NCBI GenBank assembly: GCA_963721925.1
Contig: CAVRLH010000002.1
Location: 14,336 to 38,335, forward strand
Source of the DNA: an uncultured Actinomycetota bacterium
GTDB lineage: Bacteria > Actinomycetota > Actinomycetes > Propionibacteriales > Nocardioidaceae
Direction of reading: 5' to 3'
Length of the DNA stretch: 24,000 nt
The translations under genes were made by a program, and so were the position numbers. Below are positions 1 to 18,261 of this stretch, piece by piece. Below the pieces are notes generated by a model. It did no database searches. It worked only from the letters and a program-made list of their open reading frames with translations, and was not told the DNA's origin. Position 1 is the stretch's first letter; every line of letters begins with the position of its first letter.

Positions 1-1004
1 GGGAGGACGACACGACGGCTGCGATCCCGGACTCGCGTTGGGAGCTGCTGTTCGACCGAGGGGACTTCGAGTTCATGACGGAGTCGTCGCGCGTGCTGAC
101 GGCGTACGACCGCTACTTCGCGACCGGCCCGTCGCAGACGTCGTCGAGCAGCCCGACCCACCAGTACCCGTGGTACATCGCCCTGGCGATCCTGTTCGTG
201 GAGCGCGGCGAGCAACCGGTGTTCTCCGAGGCCGCGCTGGCGTCCATCGCGTCCACCTGGCACGAGCCGCGACTCTATGGTGCCGCCCTCGCAGCACTCG
301 CCGGAGACCGGCGGGCTCACAGCAGGATCCTCGGACAGGTCCGGACCGAGCTCCCGTCGAGGCTCGACCTGAGCCGTCCCGACGACATCGTCGTCTGCCA
401 GGCGGCCGCGTCCCGCGGTGATCTCGACGACCTGCCGACGACGTACCAGACCTACTCCTACGACCACTTCCGGCTCTCACACGTCGCGGCCCTTGCCGAG
501 GCGGCCGGCGACCGCGGGGTCGTCGATCGCATCAGTCGTGCCACGGACGAGTTCGCGACCAGGAGGCCGGACACGCTGGAGATCAACCAGCTGCGGTCGA
601 CGCTCGCGCGCGCCGACCTCAGCCTCGGCCGGGCTGAGGATCTGCGGGCGGCTCCGACCACCCTGTCCTTCCTGTACGGCGCGATCAGGACGATCGTCAC
701 GCTGCTCGACCGGACCTCGCTCCTCGAGCTGGTCAGCGATCTCGAGCGGCGGTCCGTGTTCTGGCCGCAGGACGTGACCGCGTCCGCGCTCGACTCGACC
801 CTGCGCTCGACGATCACCCCCGCCGACTGCACCGCGCTGATCGAGACGGCCGACCGCTGCGGGTTGATCGTGGACCTGATCGACGCGGTCTCGGCGAGGA
901 CGACGACGCGGCTCTCGCTCCAGCTGGTCTCGGGGATCAGGCAGATCGAGGGGCTCCTGTTCCCCTTCGCCAGACCGCGTGCAGAGCTTCCGAGCATCCA
1001 CTGA
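1..1004 (+). CDS. Hypothetical helical (Leu/Ala/Arg-rich) protein, first visible gene of the protease-tyrosinase cluster; probably 5'-truncated by the window edge
   Basis: ORF track gives 75..1004 (309 aa). The same frame is stop-free from nt 3 to 74 (EDDTTAAIPDSRWELLFDRGDFEF, then M at 75) with GC-rich third positions, so the real start may lie upstream of the window. The stop at 1002-1004 is 24 nt before the ATG of the next gene. I recognise no catalytic or binding motif. Confidence 0.6.
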   Translation, partial: EDDTTAAIPDSRWELLFDRGDFEFMTESSRVLTAYDRYFATGPSQTSSSSPTHQYPWYIALAILFVERGEQPVFSEAALASIASTWHEPRLYGAALAALAGDRRAHSRILGQVRTELPSRLDLSRPDDIVVCQAAASRGDLDDLPTTYQTYSYDHFRLSHVAALAEAAGDRGVVDRISRATDEFATRRPDTLEINQLRSTLARADLSLGRAEDLRAAPTTLSFLYGAIRTIVTLLDRTSLLELVSDLERRSVFWPQDVTASALDSTLRSTITPADCTALIETADRCGLIVDLIDAVSARTTTRLSLQLVSGIRQIEGLLFPFARPRAELPSIH

Positions 1005-1028
1005 ACGGCATCAGACAGGAGGAGACCG

Positions 1029-2864
1029 ATGGACGCCTTGACCCGGCTCCGGGCCGCGAACGCCGCGATCCGAGATCGCGACCGGCCGTTGGCCGACGAG
1101 CTGACCGAGCTCACGGACGGACCCACGCCCGAGGGGCCGGGCGGCGAGATCCAGCTCGAGACGATCGTCCTGCGCACAGGTCGTCCCGTCCTGGCGATCA
1201 AGCAGGACGAGGCCCAGCTCGTCTTCGACGACGCCGACAGCGCCGTGTGGAACTCCCGGCTCCAGGAGGCACGGTCGTACCTCGTGCGTGCCACCAGAGC
1301 GGTCGGGAGGATCGAGGCCGAGGGCCACAGCCTGGCGTGGCTCGGCACTGGGTGGCTCGTGGCTCCCGACACGATCGTGACCAACCGGCACGTGGCTGCC
1401 GAGTTCGGCCGCCGCAGCGGCACCACCTTCGTCTTTCGGCAGTCCCCGGGTGGCGACCTCATGCGTGCCTCGATCGACCTCCTCGAAGAGGTGGACCGCG
1501 AGGACAGCCTGACCTTGGAGCTGGGGCAGATCCTCCACATCGAGGACGCGGACGGTCCGGACATCGCCTTCTTGCGCGTGGAGCAGATCGACGGTTCGTC
1601 ATCGGTGTCGCCGATCGCTCTCGCAGAGGCGCCGCAGCCGGACGACTTCGTGGCCGTGATCGGCTACCCCGCTCGCGACAGCCGGATTCCCGACGTCGAC
1701 CTGATGGATCGGATCTTCGGGAACGTCTACGACAAGAAGCGACTCGCTCCCGGTCAGGTGATCGAGCCGCGTAGCGGCACGCTCACCCACGACTGCTCCA
1801 CCCTCGGTGGGAACTCGGGATCGGTGGTGCTCTCCCTTGCCACCGGTGACGCAGTGGGGCTCCACTTCGCGGGGAGGTTCCTCGAGGCCAACTACGCTGT
1901 CTCGAGCCAGGTGGTCGCGCAGCGTCTGGACGCTGTGCAGAGCAGAAGGGCTTCCCGGCAGCAAGCTCTCGGCGTGCCGGACCCCTTCCGGGCGGGGAGC
2001 GGTGACGGCGAGGTCTTCGTCGAGGCGGTCGCGGAGGACTACCTGGACCGCGAGGGGTACGACGCGTCGTTCCTCGGCGAGGGCCCCGAGGCACCGCTGC
2101 CCGAGGTCACGCAGGGAGTCGACGATGTGATGACCTTCGAGCTCGACGGTCGCGACGAGCAGGTGTTGAAGTACGAGCACTTCTCGGTGCTCATGAGCGC
2201 CAGCCGACGGCTGTGCCGCTACAGCGCCGTCAACATCGACGGCAACCTGTCCAAGAGCTTTGCACGCGTGGGCTGGCGGAGCGATCCCCGGATCCCGCCG
2301 AGCGCCCAGATCCGGGACGAGCCCTACGGCAATCCGCCGCAGTTCTCGCGAGGACACATGACCCGTCGGGAGGACCCGATCTGGGGCTCCGACGAGGCGG
2401 CCGCTCACGGCAACGCCGACTCGATGCACGTCACCAACGCCGTACCGCAGATGCAACCCTTCAATGCCGGCATCTGGCTCGACCTCGAGGACTACGCGCT
2501 CCAGAACGCACGGCGGGACGACATGAGGATCTCGGTGTTCACCGGGCCCTTCCTCGATGACGACGATCCGACGATGTTCGGGGTGAAGATCCCCGTCGAG
2601 TTCTGGAAGGTCATCGCGTTCGTCCACGACGAGACCGGCGCGTTGTGCGCGACCGGCTACACGATGTCGCAGCGAGACTTCCTCAGCGAGGAGGAGTTCG
2701 TCTTCGGAGCACACCGGACCGCGCAGGTGACGATCGACTCGATCGAGGGGCGTGCGGGGCTCTCCTTCGGACCGCTCACCGAGCTCGATCCGTTCGTGCA
2801 GCTGGAGGGGTCCGCCCCGCAGCTGACCGACGTGACGCAGGTCCAGTTCCTTCGCAGGCGCTGA
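1029..2864 (+). CDS. Fusion protein: N-terminal trypsin-fold (Trypsin_2-like) serine protease plus C-terminal DNA/RNA non-specific endonuclease (NUC/Endonuclease_NS, beta-beta-alpha-Me fold)
   Basis: 611-aa ORF with SD AGGAGGAG at 1017-1024, 4 nt before ATG 1029. Protease triad in canonical order: His121 in GTGWLVAPDTIVTNRHVA (codon 1389-1391), Asp178 in DIAFLRV (1560-1562), Ser263 in GGNSGSVV (1815-1817). The nuclease half carries the Serratia-nuclease signature FSRGHMTRREDP (His443, codon 2355-2357) followed by NAVPQMQPFNAGIWLDLE (metal-binding Asn and Glu). No N-terminal signal peptide (MDALTRLRAANAAIRDRDRP). Confidence 0.9.
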   Translation: MDALTRLRAANAAIRDRDRPLADELTELTDGPTPEGPGGEIQLETIVLRTGRPVLAIKQDEAQLVFDDADSAVWNSRLQEARSYLVRATRAVGRIEAEGHSLAWLGTGWLVAPDTIVTNRHVAAEFGRRSGTTFVFRQSPGGDLMRASIDLLEEVDREDSLTLELGQILHIEDADGPDIAFLRVEQIDGSSSVSPIALAEAPQPDDFVAVIGYPARDSRIPDVDLMDRIFGNVYDKKRLAPGQVIEPRSGTLTHDCSTLGGNSGSVVLSLATGDAVGLHFAGRFLEANYAVSSQVVAQRLDAVQSRRASRQQALGVPDPFRAGSGDGEVFVEAVAEDYLDREGYDASFLGEGPEAPLPEVTQGVDDVMTFELDGRDEQVLKYEHFSVLMSASRRLCRYSAVNIDGNLSKSFARVGWRSDPRIPPSAQIRDEPYGNPPQFSRGHMTRREDPIWGSDEAAAHGNADSMHVTNAVPQMQPFNAGIWLDLEDYALQNARRDDMRISVFTGPFLDDDDPTMFGVKIPVEFWKVIAFVHDETGALCATGYTMSQRDFLSEEEFVFGAHRTAQVTIDSIEGRAGLSFGPLTELDPFVQLEGSAPQLTDVTQVQFLRRR

Positions 2865-2978
2865 CCCGGCTGGCGGCCTAGACCATCGGAACCCGGGCCT
2901 TCCGGAGTGCTCGTCGACCGCCGTAGCGTGAGGCAGAGCCTGACGGGTGAGCGGCTCCGGTCCACGCAGGAGGCGACG

Positions 2979-4436
2979 ATGCTGTTGCAGCGGAAGGACA
3001 TCTGGCGGGCCGAGGAGGTCGGCGGGCCGTGGAACCAGGTGGTGCTGGCATATGCCCTGGCGTTCGGTGTGCTCGCGGGTCCACCCGATCCGCTCAAGCC
3101 CGAGTCGTGGACGCTGGAGTACCAGGCTGCGGTCCACGACATGCACCCGCTGCCCCCACCGGACGGCTTCCGTGCCACCTGCCAGCACGACACGTGGTAC
3201 TTCCTGCCATGGCACCGGATGTACCTGCTCCACTTCGAGGCGGTCGTCCGGGGCATCATCGCCGAGCTCGACGACGACCGGATCACGGACGAGACCCGCG
3301 AGACCTGGGCCTTGCCGTACTGGAACTACCAGCCCCCCGAGCATCGGATCCTGCCGAGTGCCTTCCGGCAGGCAGACCTGCCCGACGGCCAGGCCAACCC
3401 ACTGGCGGCGGCAGCGCGCTTCCCCGCGGTGCAGGCGGGGCTCCAACCCCTCAGCGATGACGAGGTCGAGTTCGCCGGATGGTGGGGGGAGACGGTGTTC
3501 ACGCTGCCCGGCACGCCGTCGTTCGGCGGGAGCGACACGCGTGGCAAGCGACACCGGCCCGTGCGGTTCGCCGACGCAGGTGCGCTGGAGATCACCCCGC
3601 ACGGGTCGGTCCACATGTACGTCGGCTGGGACATGCAGGCCTTCCACACTGCCGGCCTGGACCCCGTCTTCTGGCTGCACCACTGCAACCTGGACCGGCT
3701 GTGGGAGGTGTGGTGCGTCGGCGGCGGCGTACGACGACCCAATCCCGGCGCAGGCGGATGGGCGTCCGAGACGTTCGACTTTCGCGACGCGCACGGGGCC
3801 ACCTGGACGCGAACGTCGCGAGAGGTTGAAGACACGACCGCGCTGGGCTACACCTATGAGGACACGTCGGCGCCGGTCGCGCCGGCGTCCCCGACGAGGA
3901 GCCGCACCGTGGAGGTCGAGGGACCGGACGCAGAGACCTGGCGGCGGGAGCTCCCGCCTCGTGCCCTCGGGTCGACGGGCGAGCCGCTCGTCGTCCGGTC
4001 GGAGGCGGCGACGGTGGAGTTCGACCTGACGCCCGACGAGGAGGTGCGCACCCGCTCCGGTCGCCCGGGACCGGCCCGGGTCATCCTGAGGGTCGACAAC
4101 ATCGCGATCTCCGCCGACGACCTCGAACGAGTCCGGGACCGCCAGGCGGTCATCGGGACGTACGCCGTGTACCTGCTGGGCAGCCGGGACGGTGTCGAGG
4201 CCTACGTGGGCAACCTCCCACTGTTCGGCCTGCGAGAGTCGCTCGCGGAGGACGGCCACCACGAGCTGGCGTACTCCTTCGACGCCACCTCGGCGGTCAA
4301 CCTGCTGCGCAACCAGGACGCGTGGACGTGGGACCGCGCGAGCATCACGATCAAGCCGAGCAACCACGAGGCCTATGCGGGTGCCGGCGAGGTCGTGCCG
4401 GTCACGTTCGGCAACGTCGCCCTCTCCTACCAGTAG
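2979..4436 (+). CDS. Tyrosinase / polyphenol-oxidase family type-3 copper protein with ~190-aa C-terminal extension
   Basis: ORF track gives 2907..4436. Preferred start is ATG 2979, preceded by AGGAGG at 2968-2973. CuA site: AVHDMH...CQHDTWYFLPWHRMYLLHFE. PPO-type LPYWNY motif is present. CuB site: PHGSVHMYVGW...DPVFWLHHCNLDRLWEVW. After the copper domain (about nt 3850 onward) there is a further domain ending ...VILRVDNIAISADD...TYAVYLLG...ITIKPSNHEAY...VALSYQ, resembling the C-terminal domains of latent PPO/tyrosinases. No Sec or twin-arginine signal is visible. Confidence 0.9.
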   Translation: MLLQRKDIWRAEEVGGPWNQVVLAYALAFGVLAGPPDPLKPESWTLEYQAAVHDMHPLPPPDGFRATCQHDTWYFLPWHRMYLLHFEAVVRGIIAELDDDRITDETRETWALPYWNYQPPEHRILPSAFRQADLPDGQANPLAAAARFPAVQAGLQPLSDDEVEFAGWWGETVFTLPGTPSFGGSDTRGKRHRPVRFADAGALEITPHGSVHMYVGWDMQAFHTAGLDPVFWLHHCNLDRLWEVWCVGGGVRRPNPGAGGWASETFDFRDAHGATWTRTSREVEDTTALGYTYEDTSAPVAPASPTRSRTVEVEGPDAETWRRELPPRALGSTGEPLVVRSEAATVEFDLTPDEEVRTRSGRPGPARVILRVDNIAISADDLERVRDRQAVIGTYAVYLLGSRDGVEAYVGNLPLFGLRESLAEDGHHELAYSFDATSAVNLLRNQDAWTWDRASITIKPSNHEAYAGAGEVVPVTFGNVALSYQ

Positions 4437-4444
4437 CAGCCGCG

Positions 4445-5212
4445 ATGGCCGTGTCGTCAGCACTACCCGTCGGATCACCCCGCTGGGCGTGGCGCGCACG
4501 GGTGGAACGGCGACCGGAGCTGCCGGTCCTCGGCATCTCCGCGGCCGCCTGGGTGGTGCTGCTGCTCGTGCTGCGGGGCACGCCGACGTCGTCGTCGGGT
4601 CACGACCATGGCACGTCGCACCTCACCACCACCGGCCAGCCGGGGGACGAATGGCTGTCGGGGGCCGGCCGTGGCGCCCTGCTCTGGGTGGTGATGACGG
4701 TGGCCATGATGCTCCCGCTCGCCGTCCCCGGCCTGCGGTACGTCGCGCGGATGGTGCCACGCCGCGGTCGGCTGGCCGCCACGAGCACCTTCGCTTCCGC
4801 GTACGTCGTCGCCTGGCTGCCCGCGGCGGTGCTCGCCGGCGGCGTCCACCCGGGCACGCCGCCCGACTGGCCCGTCGTGGCAGCAGTCTTCCTGCTCGCG
4901 GCCGGCTGGGAGCTGACCCCCATCAAGCGAGCAGCCCTGCTGCGGGGCCACCGGCATCACGTCGTCCGCGCGCAGCAGCCCGCACGGAGACGCACCTGCT
5001 GGTCGTTCGGGCTCCGACGTGGTGGCTGGTGTCTCGTGTCCTGCGGGCCGGCGATGCTGGCACTGATGATCGGTCACCACGCACTCGTGCCTCTCCTCGT
5101 CCTCGCGGTCGGCGCGGTGGTGCAACAGCTCAGCCCCGACGCGCACTGGCGCCGCACCTGGTCGGCGGCCGGGCTCGTCCTGCTCGCCGTAGGTGCCCCA
5201 TGGCTGATCTGA
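4445..5212 (+). CDS. Multi-pass membrane protein, DUF2182-like (predicted metal-binding integral membrane protein)
   Basis: ORF track gives 4322..5212, which overlaps the tyrosinase. ATG 4445, 8 nt after the tyrosinase stop, is the more plausible start. There are 6-7 hydrophobic segments, a His-rich loop (SSGHDHGTSH), a WVVMTVAMMLP motif typical of DUF2182 as I remember it, and GHRHH plus CWSFG...WCLVSCGPAM Cys/His clusters. Family assignment is from memory, not a search. Confidence 0.7.
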   Translation: MAVSSALPVGSPRWAWRARVERRPELPVLGISAAAWVVLLLVLRGTPTSSSGHDHGTSHLTTTGQPGDEWLSGAGRGALLWVVMTVAMMLPLAVPGLRYVARMVPRRGRLAATSTFASAYVVAWLPAAVLAGGVHPGTPPDWPVVAAVFLLAAGWELTPIKRAALLRGHRHHVVRAQQPARRRTCWSFGLRRGGWCLVSCGPAMLALMIGHHALVPLLVLAVGAVVQQLSPDAHWRRTWSAAGLVLLAVGAPWLI

Positions 5213-5225
5213 CGAGGGAGGACGC

Positions 5226-7274
5226 ATGACACCGGACCAGGGCACGTTGTTCGTCAGCGACGCGTTCGTGAGCGTCGACAGCGGCGACGCCCTGGTCGAC
5301 GTGCGCCCGGTCCTCGACAGCCTCGAGCCGACGTACCTCGTCGTCACCGACCGCTCCTCCACCGACGGCGTCTTCGTCTTCGACGTCGAGGCAGTCCGCA
5401 GCCTCCTCGACGAGCTGGCGGACGAGGTCGCCGTCATCGGTTGGACCGGTGCCGATCTCGTCCGTGAGCTGCGCGTCGAGCCGTCGCTGGTCGTCAACCT
5501 GCTGACCGGCCAGACGGTGGACGCGACCGTCCCGGGCAACGAGCTGGAGGACGCGCTCCGGCGGCGCCTGGTCGTGACCGTCGACGATGCCGTCCGCGGC
5601 GTCATCTTCGCAGTGCACCTCGGAGAAGTGCCGTCGCTGCCCATCGACGAGCTGCTCATCCACGCCGCCAGACCGCAGCTCGACCGGGTCGAGGTGCAGG
5701 CCGTCAGCCGGGGCAGCCAGTTCCCCGTCGAGGAGCGGTCCGGGTCGCCACCTCCGCCCTTGCCGGAGGCAGCCGCGGACGGAGACAACGACGAGGCTGT
5801 TGTGAACGGCCTCCAGGTGCTCGTGCCCGCCGAGGTGGCGTACGACGCCGTCGTGCCGCTGCTCGTGCTCCTGACGCGGCCCGGCGGCGACGAGCCGGAC
5901 ATCCGCTTCGCCGCCGAGGTCGGTGACGTCATCTCCGTGGTGGTGTGGCCCCAGGAGGGAGTGGAGGTCGTCGGCTCCGAGACCGCGACGATCGAGGTGT
6001 CGGGGGCCGGCGACGACGAGACGGCGAGGATCGAGCTCAAGATCACGAGCCCGACCAGGGCGTCCCTGATCGTCGAGGGCTTCCGGGACCAGACGTCACT
6101 CGGCAGCGTGCTCGTCGAGCTGCGGGTGGTCCTGGGCGGAGGTCAGCCCGCCGCGACACAGCGCGCCGCAGTCCTTCCGCTCGATCGTGGCCGGGCCCCG
6201 CGGTCCGACCTCGCCGTCCACGTCGTCGAGGGCAAGAGCCCCACCGGTGACGGACGGGGTCTGCGCTTCGTCGCGATCGAGCCTGGCCACAAGCCCGTGG
6301 CCTTCCCGTTCCAGTCCGTCAATGGAGACGCCCAGGCCTATCTGGCCCCGCTCTTCGAGAGCATCAACGCCGCGCTGGACGCACCGGCTGCGGGTCTGCC
6401 GGGACCGACCGCGGCGGCCGACGAGGTCGTCCGGGGCATCGGTCTGACCCTGAGCTCGCAGCTGCTACCAGCGGGGTTCAGGGAGTTCCTGTGGGACAAC
6501 CGCGACAAGATCCGCAGCATCGTCGTCCACAGCGACGAGTCGCTCATCCCGTGGGAGCTGTGCCTGCTGACCCACACCGGCGACGACGGGCGTACCGAGG
6601 AGGTCGGCTTCTTCTGCGAGCTCTTCGAGCTCACCCGGTGGCGGCCTCGCCTGCCGGCCCTGGAAGTGATCACCATGCGCTCGATCGGCGTCATCGCCCC
6701 GGGCGACAGCGGGCTCACGTCCCGGGAAGCCGAGGTGGCGATGCTGACCGGCCTGACGACGCCCGATCGCACCGTCACGACCGTGCCCGCCACCACCGAC
6801 CAGGTGATGATGGCGTTGAAGGACGGGTCCTACGACGTGCTGCACTTCCTCGGGCACGGGGAGCTGCCCGACCCCACTCGCGCGTCGTCGGCGCGGCTGG
6901 TCCTGGCGGGTGCCTCCTACCTGACAGCGGAGTGGATCGGCGGTGCCTCGGCGAACTTCGGCCTGACCAACCCCCTCGTGTTCCTGAACGCCTGTCGGCT
7001 GGGCTCTGCGTCGGCCGGCCTCGTCGGTCCCTCGGGCTTCGCGCGCGTGATGCTCGACGCCGGCTCGGCTGTCTTCATCGGCGCGCACTGGAATGTCGTG
7101 GACGACACGGCCCACCGGTTCGCGACCGCGCTCTACCAGAACCTTTTGAACGGCGAACCCGTCGGTCGCGCTGCCCTGGCGGCGCGCCTGGCCGTCAAGG
7201 AGGTGGGTGATCCGACCTGGCTCGCCTACACGATCTTCGCCAGTCCCAGCGCGCGCGTCGCGTCCACTGCCTGA
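5226..7274 (+). CDS. CHAT-domain (caspase-like cysteine protease) protein with uncharacterised N-terminal ~420 aa
   Basis: 682-aa ORF with GGGAGGA at 5216-5222 before ATG 5226, 13 nt after the preceding stop. The C-terminal CHAT signature is intact: YDVLHFLGHGE (His544, codon 6855-6857) and PLVFLNACRLG (Cys590, codon 6993-6995), then AVFIGAHWNVVDD. The N-terminal part is acidic and beta-rich with no motif I can name. Confidence 0.9.
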   Translation: MTPDQGTLFVSDAFVSVDSGDALVDVRPVLDSLEPTYLVVTDRSSTDGVFVFDVEAVRSLLDELADEVAVIGWTGADLVRELRVEPSLVVNLLTGQTVDATVPGNELEDALRRRLVVTVDDAVRGVIFAVHLGEVPSLPIDELLIHAARPQLDRVEVQAVSRGSQFPVEERSGSPPPPLPEAAADGDNDEAVVNGLQVLVPAEVAYDAVVPLLVLLTRPGGDEPDIRFAAEVGDVISVVVWPQEGVEVVGSETATIEVSGAGDDETARIELKITSPTRASLIVEGFRDQTSLGSVLVELRVVLGGGQPAATQRAAVLPLDRGRAPRSDLAVHVVEGKSPTGDGRGLRFVAIEPGHKPVAFPFQSVNGDAQAYLAPLFESINAALDAPAAGLPGPTAAADEVVRGIGLTLSSQLLPAGFREFLWDNRDKIRSIVVHSDESLIPWELCLLTHTGDDGRTEEVGFFCELFELTRWRPRLPALEVITMRSIGVIAPGDSGLTSREAEVAMLTGLTTPDRTVTTVPATTDQVMMALKDGSYDVLHFLGHGELPDPTRASSARLVLAGASYLTAEWIGGASANFGLTNPLVFLNACRLGSASAGLVGPSGFARVMLDAGSAVFIGAHWNVVDDTAHRFATALYQNLLNGEPVGRAALAARLAVKEVGDPTWLAYTIFASPSARVASTA

Positions 7275-7354: not shown

Positions 7355-8098
7355 TCAGCTCCTGCCTCGCTCGGCGGTCGAGGCCGGGTGATCGGTGTCG
7401 CCGAGCTGCTTTCTCGCAACGAACCTGAATCTGTCGCCGCGGAACAGGGAGCGCGTCCACTCCACGGGCCGACCGCTCGCATCCCACGCAGTGCGCTGGA
7501 TCAGCAACAGGGGTAGTCCCACCTCGATGCCCAGCAGGTTGGCGTTGACGGGGTCGGCCGGGGTCGTCTCGACGATGTCTTCGACGGTGTCGAGCTCGAT
7601 GCCGAAGGCCTCGGCCAGCGTCCGGTAGAGCGAGCCGCGGCTGTCGAGCTCCTCAGCCAGGCGGTGCAGCGGGCCCGGGAGGTGGGCGATCTCGACAGCG
7701 ATGGGCTCTTCTGCCTGGGTCCGCAGCCGAGCAACTCGATGCACGGTGGCACCGGGAGCGAGGTGGAGGTGGTGGGCCACCTCCTCGTCGGCCTCCATCA
7801 CGTCGACGCCAAGCACCTTGCTGCCGGGTCGCCACCCGTCCGCGGCCAGGTCCTGGGAGAACGACGTCAATGGTCTGACCTGCATCAACTTGGGCTGAGC
7901 GACGAAAGTGCCGCGACCCTGGGTGCGCTCGAGGCGGCCGTTGACGACAAGCTCTGCGATCGCCTGGCGCACCGTCGTGCGAGAGGTCTCGAGCAGCTCC
8001 GCCAGCTCCCGCTCGGTGGGCAGCGCGGCACCTGTCGGCAGGTCGTCGATGAGCCGCAGGATCTCCCTCTTGACGAGGTAGTACTTCGGGATCTTCAT
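7355..8098 (-). CDS. GntR-family transcriptional regulator, HutC/UTRA subfamily (DasR/NagR-like GlcNAc regulator)
   Basis: 247 aa. N-terminal winged-HTH: LPTERELAELLETSRTTVRQAIAELVVNGRLERTQGRGTFV. C-terminal UTRA-like effector domain. It lies divergent from a GlcNAc PTS/nagB/nagA operon, with dre-like palindromes in the shared intergenic region. Confidence 0.9.
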   Translation of the reverse strand: MKIPKYYLVKREILRLIDDLPTGAALPTERELAELLETSRTTVRQAIAELVVNGRLERTQGRGTFVAQPKLMQVRPLTSFSQDLAADGWRPGSKVLGVDVMEADEEVAHHLHLAPGATVHRVARLRTQAEEPIAVEIAHLPGPLHRLAEELDSRGSLYRTLAEAFGIELDTVEDIVETTPADPVNANLLGIEVGLPLLLIQRTAWDASGRPVEWTRSLFRGDRFRFVARKQLGDTDHPASTAERGRS

Positions 8099-8140
8099 GA
8101 ATCCTCCGCTGCCTGTTCCCTGAATGGCTTGACACGACAG

Positions 8141-8156
8141 ATTGGTCTATGCCAAT
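8141..8156. promoter_or_regulatory. dre-like (DasR-responsive-element-like) operator, site 1
   Basis: ATTGGTCTATGCCAAT matches about 12 of 16 positions of the Streptomyces dre consensus A(G/C)TGGTCTAGACCA(G/C)T. The flanks extend the dyad to AGATTGG...CCAATCT (8139-8158). It lies just downstream of a TTGACA hexamer at 8129-8134. Confidence 0.65.
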
Positions 8157-8161
8157 CTGCA

Positions 8162-8177
8162 ATTGGTCTACACCAAT
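8162..8177. promoter_or_regulatory. dre-like operator, site 2
   Basis: ATTGGTCTACACCAAT matches about 13 of 16 positions of the dre consensus, with perfectly symmetric ATTGG/CCAAT arms. It is offset exactly 21 bp from site 1 (two helical turns) and ends 23 nt upstream of the PTS start codon. Confidence 0.7.
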
Positions 8178-8199
8178 CTATCACCAGCCGGAGGACCCG

Positions 8200-10287
8200 A
8201 TGACAACCACCGCCCCCGCGGACGCCGAGACGAAGCCACGTGGCTTGAGGATCCCCGGATTCGCTCAGCTCCAACGCCTCGGCAAGAGCCTGATGCTCCC
8301 CATTGCCCTGCTGCCCGCGGCCGGCATCCTGCTCCGTCTCGGACAGGACGACATGCTCGGCCAGTACAACCCGCCTGTCATCGGTCCCTTCTTCGACGCG
8401 ATGAGTGCAGCCGGCGGCGCGATCTTCGCGAACCTGCCGCTGCTGTTCGCTGTCGGCGTGGCCATCGGGTTCGCCCGCAAGGCTGACGGCTCGACGGCCC
8501 TCTCGGCAGTGGCCGGATACCTGGTCATCGCCGAGGTGTTCAAGGCGATGTCGCCCATCGTCCTCGCCGGCGAGACCACCCCGGCCGGCGACCAGGCGAT
8601 GATCAACTACAGCGTCTTCGCGGGCATCATCATCGGCGTCGTGACCGCGTGGCTGTTCGACCGCTATCACACCATCCAGCTGCCGCCCTACCTCGGCTTC
8701 TTCGGTGGCCGCAGGTTCGTGCCCATCGTGGTCTCGCTGGCGGCACTGTTCATCGGTTTCGGCATGAGCTACCTCTACCCGCTCTTCGACATGGGTCTCA
8801 CGGGGATCGCCCAGTTCATCGGCGGATCAGGTGCGATCGGCGCGTTCGTCTATGGCTTCGTCAACCGGATGCTCATCCCGCTCGGTCTGCACCACATCGT
8901 CAACACCTACATCTGGTTCCTCTATGGCGACTTCACCGTCAACGGCACGTCCTACACCGGTGAGCTGACCCGTTTCGCCAATGGCGACCCCGAGGCCGGT
9001 CGCTTGACTGCCGGCTTCTACCCGATCCTGATGTTCGGCCTGCCCGCCGCTGCCCTCGCGATGATTCATTCAGCCCGCGCGAACCAGAAGAAGCTGGCCA
9101 TCGGCATCCTCTCCGCCGCCGGTCTGACTGCCTTCCTGACCGGCGTCACCGAGCCGCTCGAGTTTGCGTTCATGTTCGTCGCCTTCCCCCTCTATGTGAT
9201 CCACGCGGTGCTGACCGGACTGTCCTTGGCGATCGCGTACTCGCTCGACATCCACCTCGGCTTCTCGTTCTCGGCCGGCCTGATCGACCTGCTTCTCTAT
9301 GGCACGGCTCCGGCCGCGAAGAACATCCCACTGCTGGTCCTGATGGGTGTGGTGTTCTTCGTCCTGTACTACGTGCTGTTCCGCTTTGCGATCACCCGCT
9401 GGAACCTGCTCACCCCGGGCCGCGACCCCGAGGCGGACGGCGCGGATGATGCGACGGACGGCACCGATCACCCCGCCGGCGCGGGTGGAGCGACTGCGCG
9501 GGCCTACCAACTGATCGCCGCTTTCGGCGGCGCGGACAACCTCCAGGCCGTTGATGCCTGCATCACCAGGCTTCGGATCGAGGTGGCTGACAAGGCCGGG
9601 GTGGACGCCGCGGCACTGCGAGCGCTGGGCGCCGCCGGTGTGATCGAGGTCGGCAACAACGTGCAGGCCGTCTTCGGCACCCAGGCAGACGGGCTCAAGG
9701 ACGAGATCCGAGCGGCGCTCGCGCAGGGATCGGCGCCGGCTGCTGCGTCCGCACCCGAGGATGTGCCGACGCCCGCGGCAGCAGTCCCGGCCACCCCCAC
9801 GGCGACCGGTCGCCTGACAGTGCTGTCGCCCCTCGGCGGCACCCTGGTGCCGCTGAGCGAGGTCCCGGACGCGACGTTCGCGAAGGGGATCGTCGGGCAC
9901 GGTCTGGCCATCGATCCGCCGCGGGAGGTCGTTGACGTGGTGGCGCCGGCTACGGGCAAGATCCTCAAGCTGTGGCCCCACGCCTTCGCTCTCCAGACCA
10001 CGGACGGAGTGGGTGTCCTGGTGCACCTTGGCATCGACACGGTGCAGCTCAAGGGTGAAGGATTCAGCGCTTATGCTGCCGAGGGTGACGAGGTCGAGAT
10101 CGGTCAGCCGATCCTGCGTTACGACGTGCCCGCTGTCGAGGCCGCCGGACGCAATCCCGTCGTGCCGGTGATCATCCTCGACCGCAAGGCCGACACCGTC
10201 GTCCTGCGAGACCTGGCTGCCGGTGGCGATGTGAAGCCCCTCGAGCTGCTCCTCACGGTCGCTGCGAAGTCCACGGTCGTGAGCTGA
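8200..10287 (+). CDS. nagE: PTS sugar transporter, fused EIIC-EIIB-EIIA (glucose/N-acetylglucosamine family), probably GlcNAc-specific
   Basis: ORF track starts at 8149, inside operator site 1. ATG 8200 with GGAGGA at 8190-8195 is preferred. EIIC membrane domain: LGKSLMLPIALLPAAGILLRLG and onward. EIIB phospho-Cys motif: VDACITRLRIEV. EIIA-Glc His motifs: WPHAFALQT and VLVHLGIDTVQLKG. Substrate is inferred from the adjacent nagB/nagA and the dre sites. Confidence 0.88.
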   Translation: MTTTAPADAETKPRGLRIPGFAQLQRLGKSLMLPIALLPAAGILLRLGQDDMLGQYNPPVIGPFFDAMSAAGGAIFANLPLLFAVGVAIGFARKADGSTALSAVAGYLVIAEVFKAMSPIVLAGETTPAGDQAMINYSVFAGIIIGVVTAWLFDRYHTIQLPPYLGFFGGRRFVPIVVSLAALFIGFGMSYLYPLFDMGLTGIAQFIGGSGAIGAFVYGFVNRMLIPLGLHHIVNTYIWFLYGDFTVNGTSYTGELTRFANGDPEAGRLTAGFYPILMFGLPAAALAMIHSARANQKKLAIGILSAAGLTAFLTGVTEPLEFAFMFVAFPLYVIHAVLTGLSLAIAYSLDIHLGFSFSAGLIDLLLYGTAPAAKNIPLLVLMGVVFFVLYYVLFRFAITRWNLLTPGRDPEADGADDATDGTDHPAGAGGATARAYQLIAAFGGADNLQAVDACITRLRIEVADKAGVDAAALRALGAAGVIEVGNNVQAVFGTQADGLKDEIRAALAQGSAPAAASAPEDVPTPAAAVPATPTATGRLTVLSPLGGTLVPLSEVPDATFAKGIVGHGLAIDPPREVVDVVAPATGKILKLWPHAFALQTTDGVGVLVHLGIDTVQLKGEGFSAYAAEGDEVEIGQPILRYDVPAVEAAGRNPVVPVIILDRKADTVVLRDLAAGGDVKPLELLLTVAAKSTVVS

Positions 10288-10288
10288 C

Positions 10289-11074
10289 ATGGAGGTCGTC
10301 ATCCTCGACGAGCCGGAACGGTTGGCACACGTCGCCGCCGATGCGGTCGCTGGCGTGCTGGCGAGCAGGCGGAGCGCCACGCTCGGCCTTGCGACCGGAT
10401 CGTCGCCCCTGGCTGTGTACGACGAGTTGGCCGCTCGGTGCTCGCGGGGGGAGCTCAGCTTCGCGTCGGCTCGAGGTTTCACCCTTGACGAGTACGTCGG
10501 GCTGCCCGCCGACCACCCGGAGCGCTATCGGACGGTCATCGACCGTGACTTCGTCTCGCGGGTGGACTTCGCTCCGGGTGCGGTCGTCGGACCCGATGGC
10601 CTGGCGAGCGACATCCCCGCGTCCTGCGCGGCCTACGAGCAGTCGATCGCCGATGCCGGGGGAGTCGACCTGCAGATCCTGGGGATCGGCACCGACGGGC
10701 ACATCGCCTTCAACGAGCCGGGGTCGTCGTTCGCTTCGCGAACTCGGATCAAGACCTTGACCCGACAGACGCGCGTCGACAACGCCCGCTTCTTCGGGGG
10801 TGATGTCGACGCGGTGCCGACGCACTGTCTGACCCAGGGCCTCGGGACGATCATGCAGGCTCGCCACATCGTCCTCCTGGCGACCGGCCACGGAAAGGCG
10901 GAGGCGGTCCACCAGCTCGTCGAGGGTGCCGTCAGTGCCCTGTGGCCAGGAACGATCCTGCAGCACCACCCGCACGTCACGGTGCTCCTCGACGCGTCGG
11001 CGGGCAGTCGCTTGCAGCTGGCCGGCTACTACCGCGAGACCTATGCGGGCAAGCCGAGCTGGCAAGGGATCTGA
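10289..11074 (+). CDS. nagB: Glucosamine-6-phosphate deaminase
   Basis: 261 aa, starting 1 nt after the PTS stop. Signature LGIGTDGHIAFNEPGSSF, with family-typical length and context. Confidence 0.95.
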   Translation: MEVVILDEPERLAHVAADAVAGVLASRRSATLGLATGSSPLAVYDELAARCSRGELSFASARGFTLDEYVGLPADHPERYRTVIDRDFVSRVDFAPGAVVGPDGLASDIPASCAAYEQSIADAGGVDLQILGIGTDGHIAFNEPGSSFASRTRIKTLTRQTRVDNARFFGGDVDAVPTHCLTQGLGTIMQARHIVLLATGHGKAEAVHQLVEGAVSALWPGTILQHHPHVTVLLDASAGSRLQLAGYYRETYAGKPSWQGI

Positions 11075-11076
11075 CC

Positions 11077-12225
11077 ATGCTCCTGATGGCAGGGACAGTC
11101 CTGACCGGCGCGTCCTCGCTGGGACAAGGATGGGTGGAGATCGAGTCCGGCCGGGTGGTGGGCGTCGGTTCCGGCACCCCAGCCCGGCCACCGGACCTCG
11201 ACCTGGGTGAGGCCATCCTGGCTCCAGGCTTCGTCGACATGCATGTGCACGGCGGCGGCGGGGGCGCGTTCTTCGAAGCGACCGACGAGGCCGTTGCCGC
11301 AACGCTGGCACTGCACCGTCGCCATGGCACCACCGCCATGATGGCCTCGCTGGTCTCCGACCATCCGGAGGCGCTGGTCCGACAGGTGAGTGCCCTCGCC
11401 GACCACGTCGAGGGCGGCGAACTCCTGGGGATCCACCTCGAAGGACCGTGGCTGGCGGCGCGGCGGTGCGGCGCCCACGAGCCGACCGCCCTGCGCGATC
11501 CCGATCCGGCTGAGCTCCAGACGCTGCTCGAGGCTGGCCGGGGCGCAGTGCGCATGGTGACGCTCGCCCCTGAGCTGCCGGGCGCTATCGAGGCCATCCG
11601 ACTGATCGTCGACGCGGGAGCGGTAGCGGCGATCGGGCACACGGATGCGACCTACGAGCAGGCGCGAGCCGCCATCGATGCTGGAGCGACCGTCGCCACC
11701 CACCTGTTCAATGCGATGCGCCCGGTTCACCACCGCGAACCCGGACCTGTCGTGGCCGCGCTCGAGGACCCCCGGGTCACCGTCGAGCTCGTCAATGACG
11801 GTGTGCACCTGCACCCGGCCCTGCACCGCCTCGTGACCGCTGACGTCGGCGTCGATCGGGTCGCGCTCGTCACTGACGCGATGGCGGCGGCAGGGATGAT
11901 GGACGGCGCCTATCGACTCGGCTCGCTGGCCGTCGACGTCACCGACGGCGTGGCGCAGGTTGCGGGCACCGACACGATCGCCGGGAGCACAGCGACCATG
12001 GCGAGCATGGTGAGAACGGCGGTCACCCACGGGGTCGGCGACCCCGACGAGGCGTTGCTCACCGTGATCCGGCAGGTGTGCCTCAACCCCTTGCGGGCGT
12101 TGGGGCTGCCGGCGCCCGGTCTTGCGCCGGGGGCCACGGCCGATCTCGTCGTACTCGCCGGTGATCTTCAGGTCCAAGGCGTGATGCGGCAGGGAGCCTG
12201 GGCGCATCACCCGACGTCGTCCTGA
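11077..12225 (+). CDS. nagA: N-acetylglucosamine-6-phosphate deacetylase
   Basis: The ORF track start at 10942 overlaps nagB. ATG 11077, 2 nt after the nagB stop, is preferred. Amidohydrolase motifs: GFVDMHVHGGGG, GIHLEGPW, IGHTDATYEQ, THLFNAM. Confidence 0.92.
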   Translation: MLLMAGTVLTGASSLGQGWVEIESGRVVGVGSGTPARPPDLDLGEAILAPGFVDMHVHGGGGGAFFEATDEAVAATLALHRRHGTTAMMASLVSDHPEALVRQVSALADHVEGGELLGIHLEGPWLAARRCGAHEPTALRDPDPAELQTLLEAGRGAVRMVTLAPELPGAIEAIRLIVDAGAVAAIGHTDATYEQARAAIDAGATVATHLFNAMRPVHHREPGPVVAALEDPRVTVELVNDGVHLHPALHRLVTADVGVDRVALVTDAMAAAGMMDGAYRLGSLAVDVTDGVAQVAGTDTIAGSTATMASMVRTAVTHGVGDPDEALLTVIRQVCLNPLRALGLPAPGLAPGATADLVVLAGDLQVQGVMRQGAWAHHPTSS

Positions 12226-12250
12226 GGCCCCGGCAGCCCGGAGCGTGATG

Positions 12251-12889
12251 TCAGCCGGTGATCAGCCGGACGAGCGGCCGCAGGTCGTCGTGCACCGCCA
12301 CGACACCGGCATCGACGAGCGAGCCGGCGGCGTGCGACGTACTGATGCCATGCACCCTTCCCACGTCCGCCTTCAGCGCCGCGACCACGCCTGCAGGCGA
12401 GTCCTCGACGGCCAAGGACAGGGCGGGGTCGACGTCGAGACGTACGACCGCCAGGGCGTAGCCGGCGGGGTCCGGCTTGCCGGCGAGGACGTCCCGCGCC
12501 GTGACGACCGTGTCGACGGCCTCGAGGGACAGCCCGAGCGACTCCACCAGCGACCGCTCCACCCAGGCAGGACCGGCCGAGGTGACGATGGCCAACCGGA
12601 CACCGGCCGCACGTGCGGCGACCACCAGGTCGCGCGCCCCCGGCACCGCGTCGGCCGGTTCATCGGGGATGTGCGGTAGCACCTCGGCCAGCAGCGCTGC
12701 GGGATCGTGGCCCTGCCACGGCCCGGGCTCGGTGGCGAAGACGTCCTCGGCCCGCCTTCCTGTGAAGACCGAGAGGTCGGGGACGTCCCAGCTGCGGGCG
12801 TCGAGGAAGGCGCGGTAGCCGCGCCGGTGCAGGGGCTCGGAGTCGATCAGGGTCCCGTCGAGGTCGAGCAGCAGAGCAACCGGCCTCAC
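12251..12889 (-). CDS. HAD-superfamily hydrolase, subfamily IA (beta-phosphoglucomutase-like phosphatase)
   Basis: 212 aa with a GTG start. HAD motifs: I LLDLDGTLIDSE, II IVTSAG, III GKPDPAGY, IV VEDSPAG. Confidence 0.85.
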   Translation of the reverse strand: MRPVALLLDLDGTLIDSEPLHRRGYRAFLDARSWDVPDLSVFTGRRAEDVFATEPGPWQGHDPAALLAEVLPHIPDEPADAVPGARDLVVAARAAGVRLAIVTSAGPAWVERSLVESLGLSLEAVDTVVTARDVLAGKPDPAGYALAVVRLDVDPALSLAVEDSPAGVVAALKADVGRVHGISTSHAAGSLVDAGVVAVHDDLRPLVRLITG

Positions 12890-12981
12890 GCGGTGAGGAC
12901 CAGTAGGTCGCCCGCGATGACGGCTTCCCCCACCGCGTCGCTCGCGATCGCATCGTCTCTATCGAGGACGGGCAGTTCCAT
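12886..12981 (-). CDS. Possible 31-aa small ORF translationally coupled to the HAD gene
   Basis: ATG at 12981 (minus strand) is preceded by AGGAGA (plus-strand tctcct, 12987-12992) with 5-nt spacing. Its TGA overlaps the GTG start of the HAD gene (GTGA, 12886-12889). Peptide: MELPVLDRDDAIASDAVGEAVIAGDLLVLTA. The longer 61-aa track ORF (start 13071) has no SD. Confidence 0.3.
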   Translation of the reverse strand: MELPVLDRDDAIASDAVGEAVIAGDLLVLTA

Positions 12982-13369
12982 CGCTGTCTCCTGTCGGGCT
13001 GTGCTGCTGTCATGCAGACCGGGTCTCGTCCTCCAGCGCATGCTGAATTCGGGAGTGTATGTCTGACTCAAGAAGCGGTTCAGTCGCCCTCTCGGAAGGT
13101 CCAGCCATCGTCGTCGGACTCCACGACGGGGCCGACCGGCTCGACACGGACCTCGAACCGCAGCACGCCGCTGCCGGCGGGGTCGACCCGCTGCTCGGCC
13201 GGGGTCACCTGCACGCCGTCCGGGACGTCACCGAGACGGTGCCGCCGGTCTCGGGGCTGATGCAGACGAAGATCTCGCCGGCTCCCGGTCCTGGGTCTCC
13301 GTCGTGGCCCCCATCGTCCTTCGGGGCGGGTGTTTCGTCCGCGCTCGCGACGGACCCAGGCGGCCGCGG

Positions 13370-13582
13370 TCAGCTGATCTTCGTCAGGGCCCTCAGCGCC
13401 ACGCGACGCAGCGGGTTGAGGTGCGGATCGCGCAGCGCACGCAGCCGGCGTGCCTTGATGTCGTACGACGCTCCCAGGCGGGTGGCGGTGGCGTGGTCCT
13501 TGTTCACCAGGGCTCGCTGGATGGACTCGGTGTAGCGGTTCTCCAGGGACGAGAGCTTCTCGTCCACTACTGCGGGTGACAT
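13370..13582 (-). CDS. Small hypothetical protein (70 aa)
   Basis: The track ORF 13370..13669 is shortened to the internal ATG at 13582, which is preceded by GAAGGAAGG. Product: MSPAVVDEKLSSLENRYTESIQRALVNKDHATATRLGASYDIKARRLRALRDPHLNPLRRVALRALTKIS, basic and helical. No family recognised. Confidence 0.5.
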   Translation of the reverse strand: MSPAVVDEKLSSLENRYTESIQRALVNKDHATATRLGASYDIKARRLRALRDPHLNPLRRVALRALTKIS

Positions 13583-13629
13583 GGTGCCTTCCTTCAGGTA
13601 TCGGGTGTGTAACGATCCTCGCGCACTAC

Positions 13630-13643
13630 TTGGAACGTTCCAA
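13630..13643. promoter_or_regulatory. Perfect 14-bp palindrome TTGGAACGTTCCAA, candidate operator
   Basis: The sequence is exactly self-complementary. It sits in the lower-GC 194-bp divergent intergenic region, 48 nt upstream of the 70-aa gene (minus strand) and 134 nt upstream of the TagF-like gene (plus strand). Confidence 0.4.
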
Positions 13644-13776
13644 GCCAACGGCTCCATGACCTTGGGCACAGTCCGAATCGGGAAGATCGCAGCCCGTCCG
13701 GCGGTTGAAGAAGAAGCGCCCTGGCAAGAGTGTCGATCTGGCCCGAGACGTGTGGACCGGCCTCTAGACTCTGTAG

Positions 13777-14922
13777 GTGAACACGGTTCCCGTCACCGCC
13801 TACTTCGCCGGTGATCCCAGCAGGACCTACCAGCTGATCCAGTGGCTCGAGGTCCTCGACGTCCTGAACGACGTCCACCCGGTCTGCATCGTGCTGCGCG
13901 ACCCTGCGTCGCAACCGGTGATCGCTGCGCGGACGGACCTGCCGGTGTTCACCGCGGAGACCCTTCCCGAGCTCACTGAGCTGTACGCCGAGCTGGACGC
14001 CAGGGTGGTGCTCTACTGCAACAACTCGGCGCAGAACTTCGACTCCCTGCTCGACGGCCGCAGACTGCACGTCCACATCAACCACGGTGAGAGCGACAAG
14101 CAGTCCATGGCGAGCAACAACGCCAAGGCCTACGACCGGGTGTTCGTGGCGGGGGAGGCCGCCGTCCAGCGCTACGTCGCCGGCTTGCTGGAGTTCGACG
14201 CGAGTCGACTGGTGCGCATCGGTCGGCCCCAGCTCGACCTGCGCCGGACCCCGCTGGTCGCCCCGAGCACGCGGCGAACGGTTCTCTATGCCCCCACCTG
14301 GGAGGGTGACGCGGACTACAACGACTACACGTCGGTGGCCGTCATGGGGGAGTCGATCGTCCGTGCGATCCTCGCCGTGCCGGACGTCCGGCTCGTCTAC
14401 AAGCCACACCCCAAGATCACGACCAGCAGCACGCCTGACGTGTCAGGAGCGCACCTGGACATCCTTCGGGTGATCGCCGACTCCGCGCGGCGCGACCCCG
14501 CCGCCGGTCACGTGCCGGTGCTGGCCGGCGACATCCTGGCGGTCATGCCCGGGTGCGACGCCATCGTCACCGATGTCTCCTCCGTCGGGCTCGACTGGCT
14601 CTACCTGCACACCGACAAGCCGATCTTCCTCACCGACCGGCACGGGGACGTCGAGCAGCTCCGGCAGCAGATTCCGGTCAGTCGCTGCGCCGACGTGGTC
14701 GACGCCGACGACGTGGCGGAGCTGACGACGCTGCTCGGCGACCGGCTCGAGCGTGACGAGCACGAGCTCGCCCGGATGGCGATGCGGCACCACTACTTCG
14801 ACGACCTCCACGTGGGGGACAGCACGTCTCGTTTCCTCGGGGCCGTGTCCGAGCTGGTCGCCCTCTGCGACCAGCTCGTGGGAAACATGGCCGGCCCCGA
14901 CGGAGCCGCGGACGCGGGATAG
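13777..14922 (+). CDS. CDP-glycerol glycerophosphotransferase family protein (TagB/TagF-like)
   Basis: 381 aa with a GTG start immediately after an in-frame TAG. Family-typical motifs: VLYAPTWEGD, VYKPHPKI, DAIVTDVSSVGLDWLYLHTDKPIFL. Confidence 0.78.
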   Translation: MNTVPVTAYFAGDPSRTYQLIQWLEVLDVLNDVHPVCIVLRDPASQPVIAARTDLPVFTAETLPELTELYAELDARVVLYCNNSAQNFDSLLDGRRLHVHINHGESDKQSMASNNAKAYDRVFVAGEAAVQRYVAGLLEFDASRLVRIGRPQLDLRRTPLVAPSTRRTVLYAPTWEGDADYNDYTSVAVMGESIVRAILAVPDVRLVYKPHPKITTSSTPDVSGAHLDILRVIADSARRDPAAGHVPVLAGDILAVMPGCDAIVTDVSSVGLDWLYLHTDKPIFLTDRHGDVEQLRQQIPVSRCADVVDADDVAELTTLLGDRLERDEHELARMAMRHHYFDDLHVGDSTSRFLGAVSELVALCDQLVGNMAGPDGAADAG

Positions 14923-14947
14923 ATGCCGCGAGGTGGTGCGAGGCCGG

Positions 14948-18249: not shown

Positions 18250-18261
18250 GCACTACTAGTG

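Follow-up and report, generated by a model that had tools for sequence, protein, structure and literature searches.

We wanted to know why, in an uncultured actinobacterium of the family Nocardioidaceae, the gene of a latent-type tyrosinase lies in a tight row with genes of two proteases and a nuclease, and whether such a row makes up one system or more. The window, that is the whole stretch of DNA analysed here, spans 24,000 nucleotides (nt) of contig CAVRLH010000002.1 (assembly GCA_963721925.1, positions 14,336 to 38,335 of the forward strand), with a guanine-cytosine (GC) content of about 70%. Its first 7,274 nt had been interpreted, from the sequence itself, as a candidate for a single protease-gated phenoloxidase/nuclease conflict system (hereafter the original prediction), composed of five co-directional genes that we call g1 to g5:

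3/75 to 1004, plus strand: g1, open reading frame (ORF) with its 5' end beyond the window edge
1029 to 2864, plus strand: g2, trypsin-like serine peptidase fused to a NucA/Endonuclease_NS nuclease (trypsin-NucA), 611 amino acids (aa), no visible signal (Pfam, residues)
2979 to 4436, plus strand: g3, latent-type tyrosinase, 485 aa
4445 to 5212, plus strand: g4, PpoB2-family membrane copper chaperone, 255 aa (PF09948, hydropathy)
5226 to 7274, plus strand: g5, CHAT protease, 682 aa

Much of the original prediction was borne out. The coordinates were reproduced, with gaps of 24, 114, 8 and 13 nt between consecutive genes, and the codon-position GC content of all five ORFs (high at the first position, low at the second, 0.82-0.92 at the third) had the pattern of real genes. 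The anticipated domains, Trypsin_2, Endonuclease_NS, Tyrosinase with a C-terminal domain, DUF2182 and CHAT, were all matched in Pfam, and the catalytic residues of protease, nuclease, tyrosinase and CHAT were found intact and invariant in homologue alignments. A simple hydropathy check, made with no dedicated predictor, detected neither an N-terminal hydrophobic nor a twin-arginine signal in g2, g3 and g5, in agreement with the view that the soluble proteins have no visible secretion signal. As had also been stated, the GC content of the cluster (0.67-0.73) resembled that of the rest of the window (0.64-0.72), and no mobility genes were present within the window. What did not stand was the union of the five genes. 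In our best reading of the sequence comparisons, the region consists of two separately inherited modules placed head to tail and does not form a single machine of five genes. Module A, which begins upstream of the window and ends at 2864, appears to pair a STAND NTPase with a cytoplasmic trypsin-NucA fusion and to belong among the NucA-peptidase conflict systems that have been predicted. Module B (2979-7274) is, judging from its relatives, a compact cassette of pro-tyrosinase, PpoB2 and CHAT, conserved but rare. The best explanation that we can offer, in which we place about even confidence, is that of two modules in the second of which the CHAT protease would activate a plugged pro-tyrosinase loaded by PpoB2.

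The two modules are distinguished because relatives of the trio occur without trypsin-NucA or STAND, and trypsin-NucA loci occur without tyrosinase. For the tyrosinase, we surveyed 80 species-level genome loci of the g3 family and built a neighbour-joining (NJ) tree of 86 tyrosinases; for the trypsin-NucA fusion, we surveyed 80 metagenomic loci (about 0.6 Mb of flanks) and four genome-derived loci, 84 in total. Neighbour counts around the tyrosinase loci are approximate because the in-house gene caller is rough, producing over-extended starts and small spurious ORFs. In the closest relatives of the trio, the tyrosinase was 64-74% and CHAT 55-74% identical, with gaps of 7-20 nt. The trio was flanked by an abhydrolase upstream and a glyoxalase downstream in an Arachnia sp. 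(L002), by GH32 upstream and trehalose genes downstream in L084, and by MarR-MFS upstream and an SNF2 helicase downstream in L087, while L086 was a short contig; neither trypsin-NucA nor STAND was found beside the trio in any of these four. Reciprocally, the 80 metagenomic trypsin-NucA loci contained no tyrosinase or PpoB2, and the 80 tyrosinase loci no NucA. Apart from a contact of tyrosinase-PpoB2 with a NucA-peptidase/STAND system in Nocardioides ungokensis, the five-gene combination was not conserved outside very close relatives, an outcome that essentially undoes the idea of five genes as one conserved system. Thus, of the single protease-gated phenoloxidase/nuclease system, the domains, the latency and the protease linkage stood, and the unity of the five genes fell.

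The same surveys bear on a single integrated system, in which STAND/trypsin and/or CHAT would jointly gate both NucA and the tyrosinase as one abortive-infection device. Besides the shared direction and close spacing of the genes, this idea draws on the junction:

2865 to 2978, no strand: gap between modules A and B, 114 nt; AGGAGG at 2968-2973, ahead of the g3 start codon (ATG at 2979)

A scan of 2865-2978, made with a sigma-70 type consensus that is ill-suited to Actinomycetota, detected neither a consensus promoter nor a terminator, and co-transcription of all five genes is therefore possible. Moreover, tyrosinase upstream regions of six relatives were aligned, and no conservation indicative of a cassette-borne promoter was seen. 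In N. ungokensis, an operon encoding two Trypsin proteins, a Trypsin-NucA fusion that is 60% identical to g2, EAD1-Trypsin, another EAD1 protein and STAND ends 8 bp from a convergent pair of PpoB2 and Tyrosinase-DUF7868, with no CHAT. This recurrence suggests that A and B are possibly not fully independent and, together with the possible co-transcription, it counts against a clean separation; looser coupling or shared island residency are therefore to be kept in mind. In addition, an S8-Trypsin_2 protein adjoins tyrosinase-PpoB2 in locus L083, its trypsin domain resembling that of g2 (1.3e-20), and NucA-peptidase systems recruit variable extra effectors (PMC7159879). Nevertheless, we judge a single integrated system highly unlikely: the close trio relatives have no module A at all, the trypsin-NucA and tyrosinase surveys found each without the other, the N. 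ungokensis pair is convergent and lacks CHAT, and tyrosinase and CHAT bear no EAD adaptor. An adaptor of this sort, tying the tyrosinase to the NucA-peptidase system, was considered and dropped, Pfam giving no EAD match on g3, g5 or the N. ungokensis tyrosinase. This last tyrosinase is about 31% identical to g3 and far apart from it in the NJ tree, and because of this distance the N. ungokensis juxtaposition is taken as independent of that in the window. By a rough estimate, of the genomes holding two given rare families, well under 1% would have them less than 10 kb apart. Two independent A-B contacts are thus suggestive, yet they could also arise if both modules tend to settle in the same variable regions. 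The adjacency most likely reflects co-residence in a variable region, and possibly a loose functional coupling.

Module B is held together by the linkage of CHAT to the tyrosinase-PpoB2 pair. All seven full-length relatives of g5 with a readable neighbourhood adjoin tyrosinase-PpoB2, six of them keeping the gene order with gaps below 20 nt. The trio was also found in Solirubrobacter deserti (L009) and in a gammaproteobacterial metagenome-assembled genome (MAG; L053), and a Gaiellaceae MAG (L080) has it with a divergently oriented CHAT gene. In the NJ tree, the CHAT-linked tyrosinases occupy at least four separate places, and therefore the linkage appears either to be old, with many losses, or to have arisen several times; in both cases, this argues for function. 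The claim that a tyrosinase is physically linked to proteases was hence strengthened, since the link recurs in evolution across loci. It could be objected that CHAT is a chance neighbour, or acts on another substrate and is functionally unconnected to the tyrosinase: it occurs in three of the 80 species-level tyrosinase loci, and the remoter CHAT-only relatives (P0128, P0129, P0130) lie in other contexts and not beside a tyrosinase. Against the seven out of seven adjoining loci and the four or more separate lineages, we give this objection a very slight probability. A Pfam scan of 126 immediate neighbours of tyrosinase-PpoB2 pairs placed Peptidase_S8 joint first with HATPase_c, at four each; CHAT accounted for two (three counting L053, where it lies one gene further), and about ten matched PADLOC models. 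When all ORFs at 84 tyrosinase loci were clustered by BLAST, no other consistently linked family emerged, the largest clusters being response regulators, short-chain dehydrogenases/reductases (SDRs), ABC ATPases, aldo-keto reductases, AMP-ligases, major facilitator superfamily (MFS) transporters and WYL regulators. In Actinoplanes solisilvae (L016:12032-15466), a 1,144-aa protein with a P-loop and a WD40 beta-propeller (STAND-like) is encoded convergently to tyrosinase-PpoB2.

The tyrosinase g3 has the architecture of a latent enzyme, with three parts:

aa ~1-295, plus strand: catalytic core (AlphaFold2 (AF2) model, Pfam)
aa 300-327 (nt 3876-3959), plus strand: disordered Arg-bearing linker (AF2 model)
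aa 328-485, plus strand: C-terminal beta-sandwich LID (DUF7868) with plug Phe416 (Pfam, AF2 model)

Pfam matched Tyrosinase (PF00264, 1.2e-29) and DUF7868 (3.2e-10). The copper ligands H53/H70/H79 of CuA and H208/H212/H234-H235 of CuB were invariant in the homologue alignment, and C68 belongs to a C-x-H motif (C68-x-H70). The AF2 model has two domains, with a mean predicted local distance difference test (pLDDT) of 90.2 and a predicted template modelling score of 0.92; within the linker, residues 304-311 ('SPTRSRTV') fell below a pLDDT of 50. The best full-length Foldseek matches were HcTyr1 of Hahella (8B74), latent polyphenol oxidase (PPO) of apple and tomato, and latent aurone synthase, and homologues of g3 had PPO1_DWL/KFDV matches. 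By sequence alignment, the placeholder F397 of HcTyr1 ('GLFGL') corresponds to F416 of g3 ('PLFGL'), a residue invariant in 75 tyrosinase homologues. These comparisons uphold the proposal of a latent, C-terminally capped tyrosinase and indicate, from model and alignment, that g3 is a LID-capped type-3 copper enzyme in which Phe416 presumably plugs the active site. Since it has no visible export signal, g3 would be cytoplasmic. How strongly such a cap can restrain the enzyme is known from HcTyr1, whose LID carries the placeholder Phe397 and whose LID-free form is about 10-fold more active (PMC11609597), and from the TAT-exported pro-tyrosinase of Verrucomicrobium spinosum, whose core reaches 213 U/mg versus 0.67 U/mg for the full-length form gated by Phe453 (PMC10526336). 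In the linker, R309 is present in 58 of 75 family sequences, many have RRRR runs, and an R-x-R or poly-Arg linker occurs in all seven CHAT-linked tyrosinases. Some family members are longer: P0025, P0030, P0035, P0054, P0107 and P0118 (572-599 aa) share a conserved N-terminal extension of about 100 aa ('MLTSQLFAGDPLLEAIAA...') in which Pfam found no match and which, presumably, resembles a peptidoglycan-binding domain, a likeness that we take as a lead only. In P0115, four LysM repeats precede the tyrosinase domain, hinting at cell-wall targeting in some members of the family.

Next to the tyrosinase, 8 nt 3' of g3, g4 had been described as a metal-binding membrane protein. It is indeed a metal-linked membrane protein, with about five to six hydrophobic segments and His-rich loops by hydropathy; what changes is that it is no unknown component, as it matches PF09948 (1.2e-20), the old DUF2182, now named 'PpoB2, copper chaperone'. 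A PpoB2 homologue adjoins the tyrosinase in 61 of 83 family loci, and from these matches g3 and g4 can be assigned to the known tyrosinase-PpoB2 pair. In Marinomonas mediterranea, the COG5486 membrane protein PpoB2 transfers copper specifically to the tyrosinase PpoB1, and the two yield melanin (PMC2855505).

The third member of the trio, g5, is divided as follows:

aa 1-83, plus strand: small alpha/beta N-domain (AF2 model)
aa 84-189, plus strand: disordered stretch of about 100 aa (AF2 model)
aa 190-365, plus strand: two Ig-like beta-sandwiches (AF2 model)
aa ~369-682 (nt ~6330-7271), plus strand: helical region and CHAT domain (AF2 model, Pfam)

The CHAT match (PF12770, 1.5e-18) places it among caspase-like proteases of clan CD, and its dyad H544/C590 was invariant in the homologue alignment. 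With the AF2 model (pLDDT 72), Foldseek returned separase, Csx29 (Craspase), SAVED-CHAT and DdvA. The N-terminal 400 aa have nine relatives among 1.84 billion cluster representatives. No Cas7-11/Csx30, SAVED, TPR or cyclic-nucleotide partner was found in g5 or its neighbours. The tyrosinase-linked CHAT of the gammaproteobacterial MAG (L053:12777-16469) is a 1,230-aa protein with DUF7362, DUF7379, TCAD7, DUF7363 and CHAT domains, and we dropped the idea of a single full-length CHAT partner conserved across phyla because the similarity between g5 and this protein is limited to the CHAT domain, their N-terminal regions not being detectably similar. The same architecture and CHAT subfamily recur in L206, and therefore tyrosinase-linked CHATs seem to come from a pool used by conflict-type operons. 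The L206 operon (9222-21606), which has no tyrosinase, encodes a DUF7379-DUF7363-CHAT protein, a weak-CHAT protein, CHAT-SIR2_2, nSTAND1 and a phage-type lysozyme. Between PpoB2 and the 1,230-aa CHAT protein, L053 also holds a stand-alone DUF7868 gene (12124-12663), which might encode a LID acting in trans or a decoy substrate.

In the mechanism that we propose for module B, PpoB2 would load copper into a cytoplasmic pro-tyrosinase, which would stay latent until CHAT cleaves, around residues 304-311, the linker, which is exposed, disordered and Arg-bearing. The cut would free the LID with its Phe416 plug, and phenols and catechols would then be oxidised to quinones and melanin-type products. 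Sensing of the trigger might fall to g5, through its unusual N-terminal region, or to another partner. From gene context we infer CHAT to be the likely activator, and several observations count against this candidate link. The Arg-rich linker is also present in many tyrosinases that have no CHAT neighbour, and HcTyr1 loses its LID spontaneously, with no dedicated protease (PMC11609597). At least 85% of the tyrosinase-PpoB2 loci have no protease or defence-type neighbour, the usual neighbours being regulators, SDRs, transporters and reductases. Among the products of the trio, no sensor is recognisable. Viral contigs held remote giant-virus tyrosinase cores and no trypsin-NucA, neither module being present there. 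All of these weigh against CHAT-gated activation or against its use in conflict. Carriage of either module by phages, a separate possibility, found no support from the viral contigs.

Several of these facts would also fit a physiological role, in which the tyrosinase would produce melanin or render phenolics harmless (for instance as protection from UV, oxidants or metals, or in developmental pigmentation), CHAT would be its maturation protease and the nuclease system an unrelated neighbour. There are precedents: besides melanin from PpoB1/PpoB2 in M. mediterranea, the non-secreted MelD2 of Streptomyces protects against phenolics (PMC2855505), and HcTyr1/2 oxidise environmental phenolics (PMC11609597). 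Neighbours at most loci are metabolic or regulatory (aldo-keto reductase, SDR, MFS, two-component regulators), and no phage or plasmid association was seen. Set against this, the genomic place of the cassette changes from relative to relative, domains of its CHAT partners recur in conflict operons, the tyrosinase-PpoB2 genes stand beside NucA-peptidase/STAND systems twice, independently, and a caspase-like gate on a cytoplasmic quinone generator would be unusual for routine pigment synthesis. On balance, we find a purely physiological role somewhat unlikely. A bolder proposal makes the trio a conflict or programmed-death effector: CHAT would sense a cue and uncap the copper-loaded pro-tyrosinase, so that quinones or cross-linked protein flood the cell or the invader, and the cassette could be plugged in beside STAND/NucA-peptidase systems as a co-effector, as the window and N. 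ungokensis would illustrate. This proposal seems to us quite unlikely as it stands. Between pigment and weapon, we incline a little towards an accessory function of module B in stress or conflict that is gated and potentially toxic, with CHAT-mediated activation as the favoured means.

Module A belongs to a family of its own. In g2, Pfam matched Trypsin_2 (5.8e-17, aa 106-278) and Endonuclease_NS (PF01223, 3.4e-41, aa 368-582); the triad H121/D178/S263 as well as R441-G442-H443, N470/N479 and E487 were intact, and all were invariant in the 11 homologues aligned. More than 3,800 homologues, 55-76% identical, make up the family, spread over many Actinomycetota in genera that include Rhodococcus, Micromonospora, Arthrobacter, Mycolicibacterium and Nocardioides. 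Trypsin-NucA fusions were assigned by Kaur et al. (eLife 2020, PMC7159879), as a computational prediction, to a 'NucA-peptidase' conflict system (System 3) whose optional parts are extra trypsins, S8 peptidases, EAD1 adaptors and STAND NTPases, and the same authors proposed that a proteolytic cascade deploys the non-specific nuclease. The intact RGH...N...E nuclease site as well as a trypsin-like peptidase within the same polypeptide, by which such systems are recognised, are both found in g2, and the earlier attribution of trypsin-NUC proteins to conflict systems thus agrees with a predicted system of this kind. Module A would accordingly work as an NTPase/peptidase layer that releases the nuclease by proteolysis, in the manner that Kaur et al. 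propose. Among the 84 surveyed loci, a g1-type STAND homologue was near the fusion in 15 and an EAD1-trypsin relative in 19; the M. goodii locus had S8 and trypsin-NucA only. With its 611 aa, g2 is about 50 aa shorter than nearly all its homologues (650-690 aa), the shortfall lying in the variable inter-domain linker, and a subset of homologues of about 1,020-1,060 aa has an additional Trypsin domain. One trypsin-NucA protein, P0133, is 100% identical to g2. Two metagenomic loci (L138:3494-7918 and L163:8345-12769) hold, some 2 kb downstream of the fusion, an ORF of about 1,475 aa that has a CHAT-like region; from its sequence, this looks like another protease pairing in trypsin-NucA systems.

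The remaining gene of module A is cut by the window edge:

1 to 1004, plus strand: g1, 333 codons from the 3' end of the gene of a STAND-type P-loop NTPase; frame open to base 1, N-terminus and Walker A upstream of the window

We identify g1 as the probable C-terminal third of a STAND-type NTPase of about 845 aa, because its reading frame is open to window base 1 and because contig L001 (97-98% identical) continues it about 1.5 kb upstream to an N-terminus with a Walker-A motif ('GPGGVGKS') and an AAA_16 match. The upstream part also has an hhhhDTFE Walker-B-like motif. The STAND N-terminus is read from L001, a contig riddled with frameshifts. Pfam gave no match in the part of g1 inside the window, and this gene has a homologue (31% over 275 aa) in the 904-aa NPHP3_N/nSTAND-like NTPase that the NucA-peptidase locus of N. 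ungokensis encodes. Neither the window nor the frameshift-ridden L001 showed an EAD1 or Death-like domain. Further upstream of g1, L001 encodes a Trypsin_2 fragment; since this fragment and several unassigned ORFs lie 5' of the STAND gene (L001:2255-5300, upstream of window position 1), the island may extend about 5 kb beyond the window start. The case of g1 illustrates the value of looking beyond the window edge.

With PADLOC-DB v2, no system-specific protein set was matched, and the matches were at the domain level, with none for g1, g3 and g4: the trypsin domain of g2 matched a 'nacht' effector model (2.7e-16) and g5 matched BovA (7.9e-05). On its downstream side, the cluster is bordered at 7355-11074 by a GntR/UTRA regulator (minus strand), a phosphotransferase system EIICBA permease and a glucosamine-6-phosphate isomerase, that is by an amino-sugar (nag-type) locus. 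Two sizeable minus-strand ORFs, at 11041-12210 and 16685-17584, had no Pfam match; the first overlaps a plus-strand ORF (10942-12225), and the coding strand is ambiguous there.

Altogether, the tyrosinase-PpoB2 pair and the predicted NucA-peptidase kind were already known, and what appears to be new is a co-encoded caspase-like protease beside a latent tyrosinase. Plants, fungi and a few bacteria are known to make latent tyrosinases and PPOs, and we know of no generally established in vivo activating protease for them; an operon of pro-tyrosinase, chaperone and caspase-like protease would give a defined activation pair. In the literature, we came across no account that links a tyrosinase to a CHAT protease and, as the original prediction had maintained, no tyrosinase in a described prokaryotic conflict system. 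A full-text search for 'CHAT domain' with tyrosinase gave unrelated fungal work only, the term 'anti-phage' was absent from the tyrosinase/prophenoloxidase papers found, and the portions of Kaur et al. 2020 (PMC7159879) available to us, text and supplement, do not mention tyrosinase. The tyrosinase-PpoB2-CHAT cassette is thus apparently undescribed. If it were a conflict effector, oxidative quinone chemistry would join the known bacterial immune outputs, with a striking functional parallel to arthropod prophenoloxidase activation. The trio, together with the repeated contact with conflict-type components, is of experimental interest, and with module A the NucA-peptidase/STAND systems come to include a very large family in actinobacteria. 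To our knowledge, no experimental defence phenotype exists for System 3.

Compared with System 3 (PMC7159879), module A shares the trypsin fused to Endonuclease_NS/NucA, the missing secretion signal and the adjacent STAND NTPase, and its relatives carry the extra trypsin paralogues and EAD1 adaptors. It differs in having no EAD1/Death-like domain detected in the window, and whereas the system of Kaur et al. is mostly alphaproteobacterial, the g2 family is abundant in Actinomycetota. With Csx29/Craspase, SAVED-CHAT and separase, which are regulated site-specific proteases, g5 has in common the caspase-like fold and the His/Cys dyad. Unlike Craspase and SAVED-CHAT, it has no Cas7-11, SAVED, TPR or cyclic-nucleotide partner, and its N-terminal region, an alpha/beta domain with two Ig-like sandwiches, is unique and very rare. 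In arthropods, PPO is a type-3 copper oxidase zymogen fired by limited proteolysis in melanisation immunity; these enzymes are of the hemocyanin type and are cleaved N-terminally, outside cells, by clip-domain serine proteases. The zymogen nature and the logic of proteolytic firing would be shared, as a functional analogy only: g3 is no hemocyanin-type PPO with an N-terminal pro-peptide. It belongs to the tyrosinase/plant-PPO type, its LID is C-terminal, the protease encoded with it is caspase-like, and the setting would be inside the cell. Closer to g3 are HcTyr1, the V. spinosum tyrosinase and the plant and fungal pro-PPOs, which have the same two domains, with a C-terminal beta-sandwich over the dicopper site and a Phe plug. 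The V. spinosum enzyme is exported by TAT whereas g3 has no visible signal, and these latent enzymes have no known dedicated, co-encoded activating protease. Finally, the ppoB1-ppoB2 operon of M. mediterranea has the same order of a tyrosinase gene followed by a PF09948/COG5486 membrane protein, to which the window appends a CHAT protease as a third gene.

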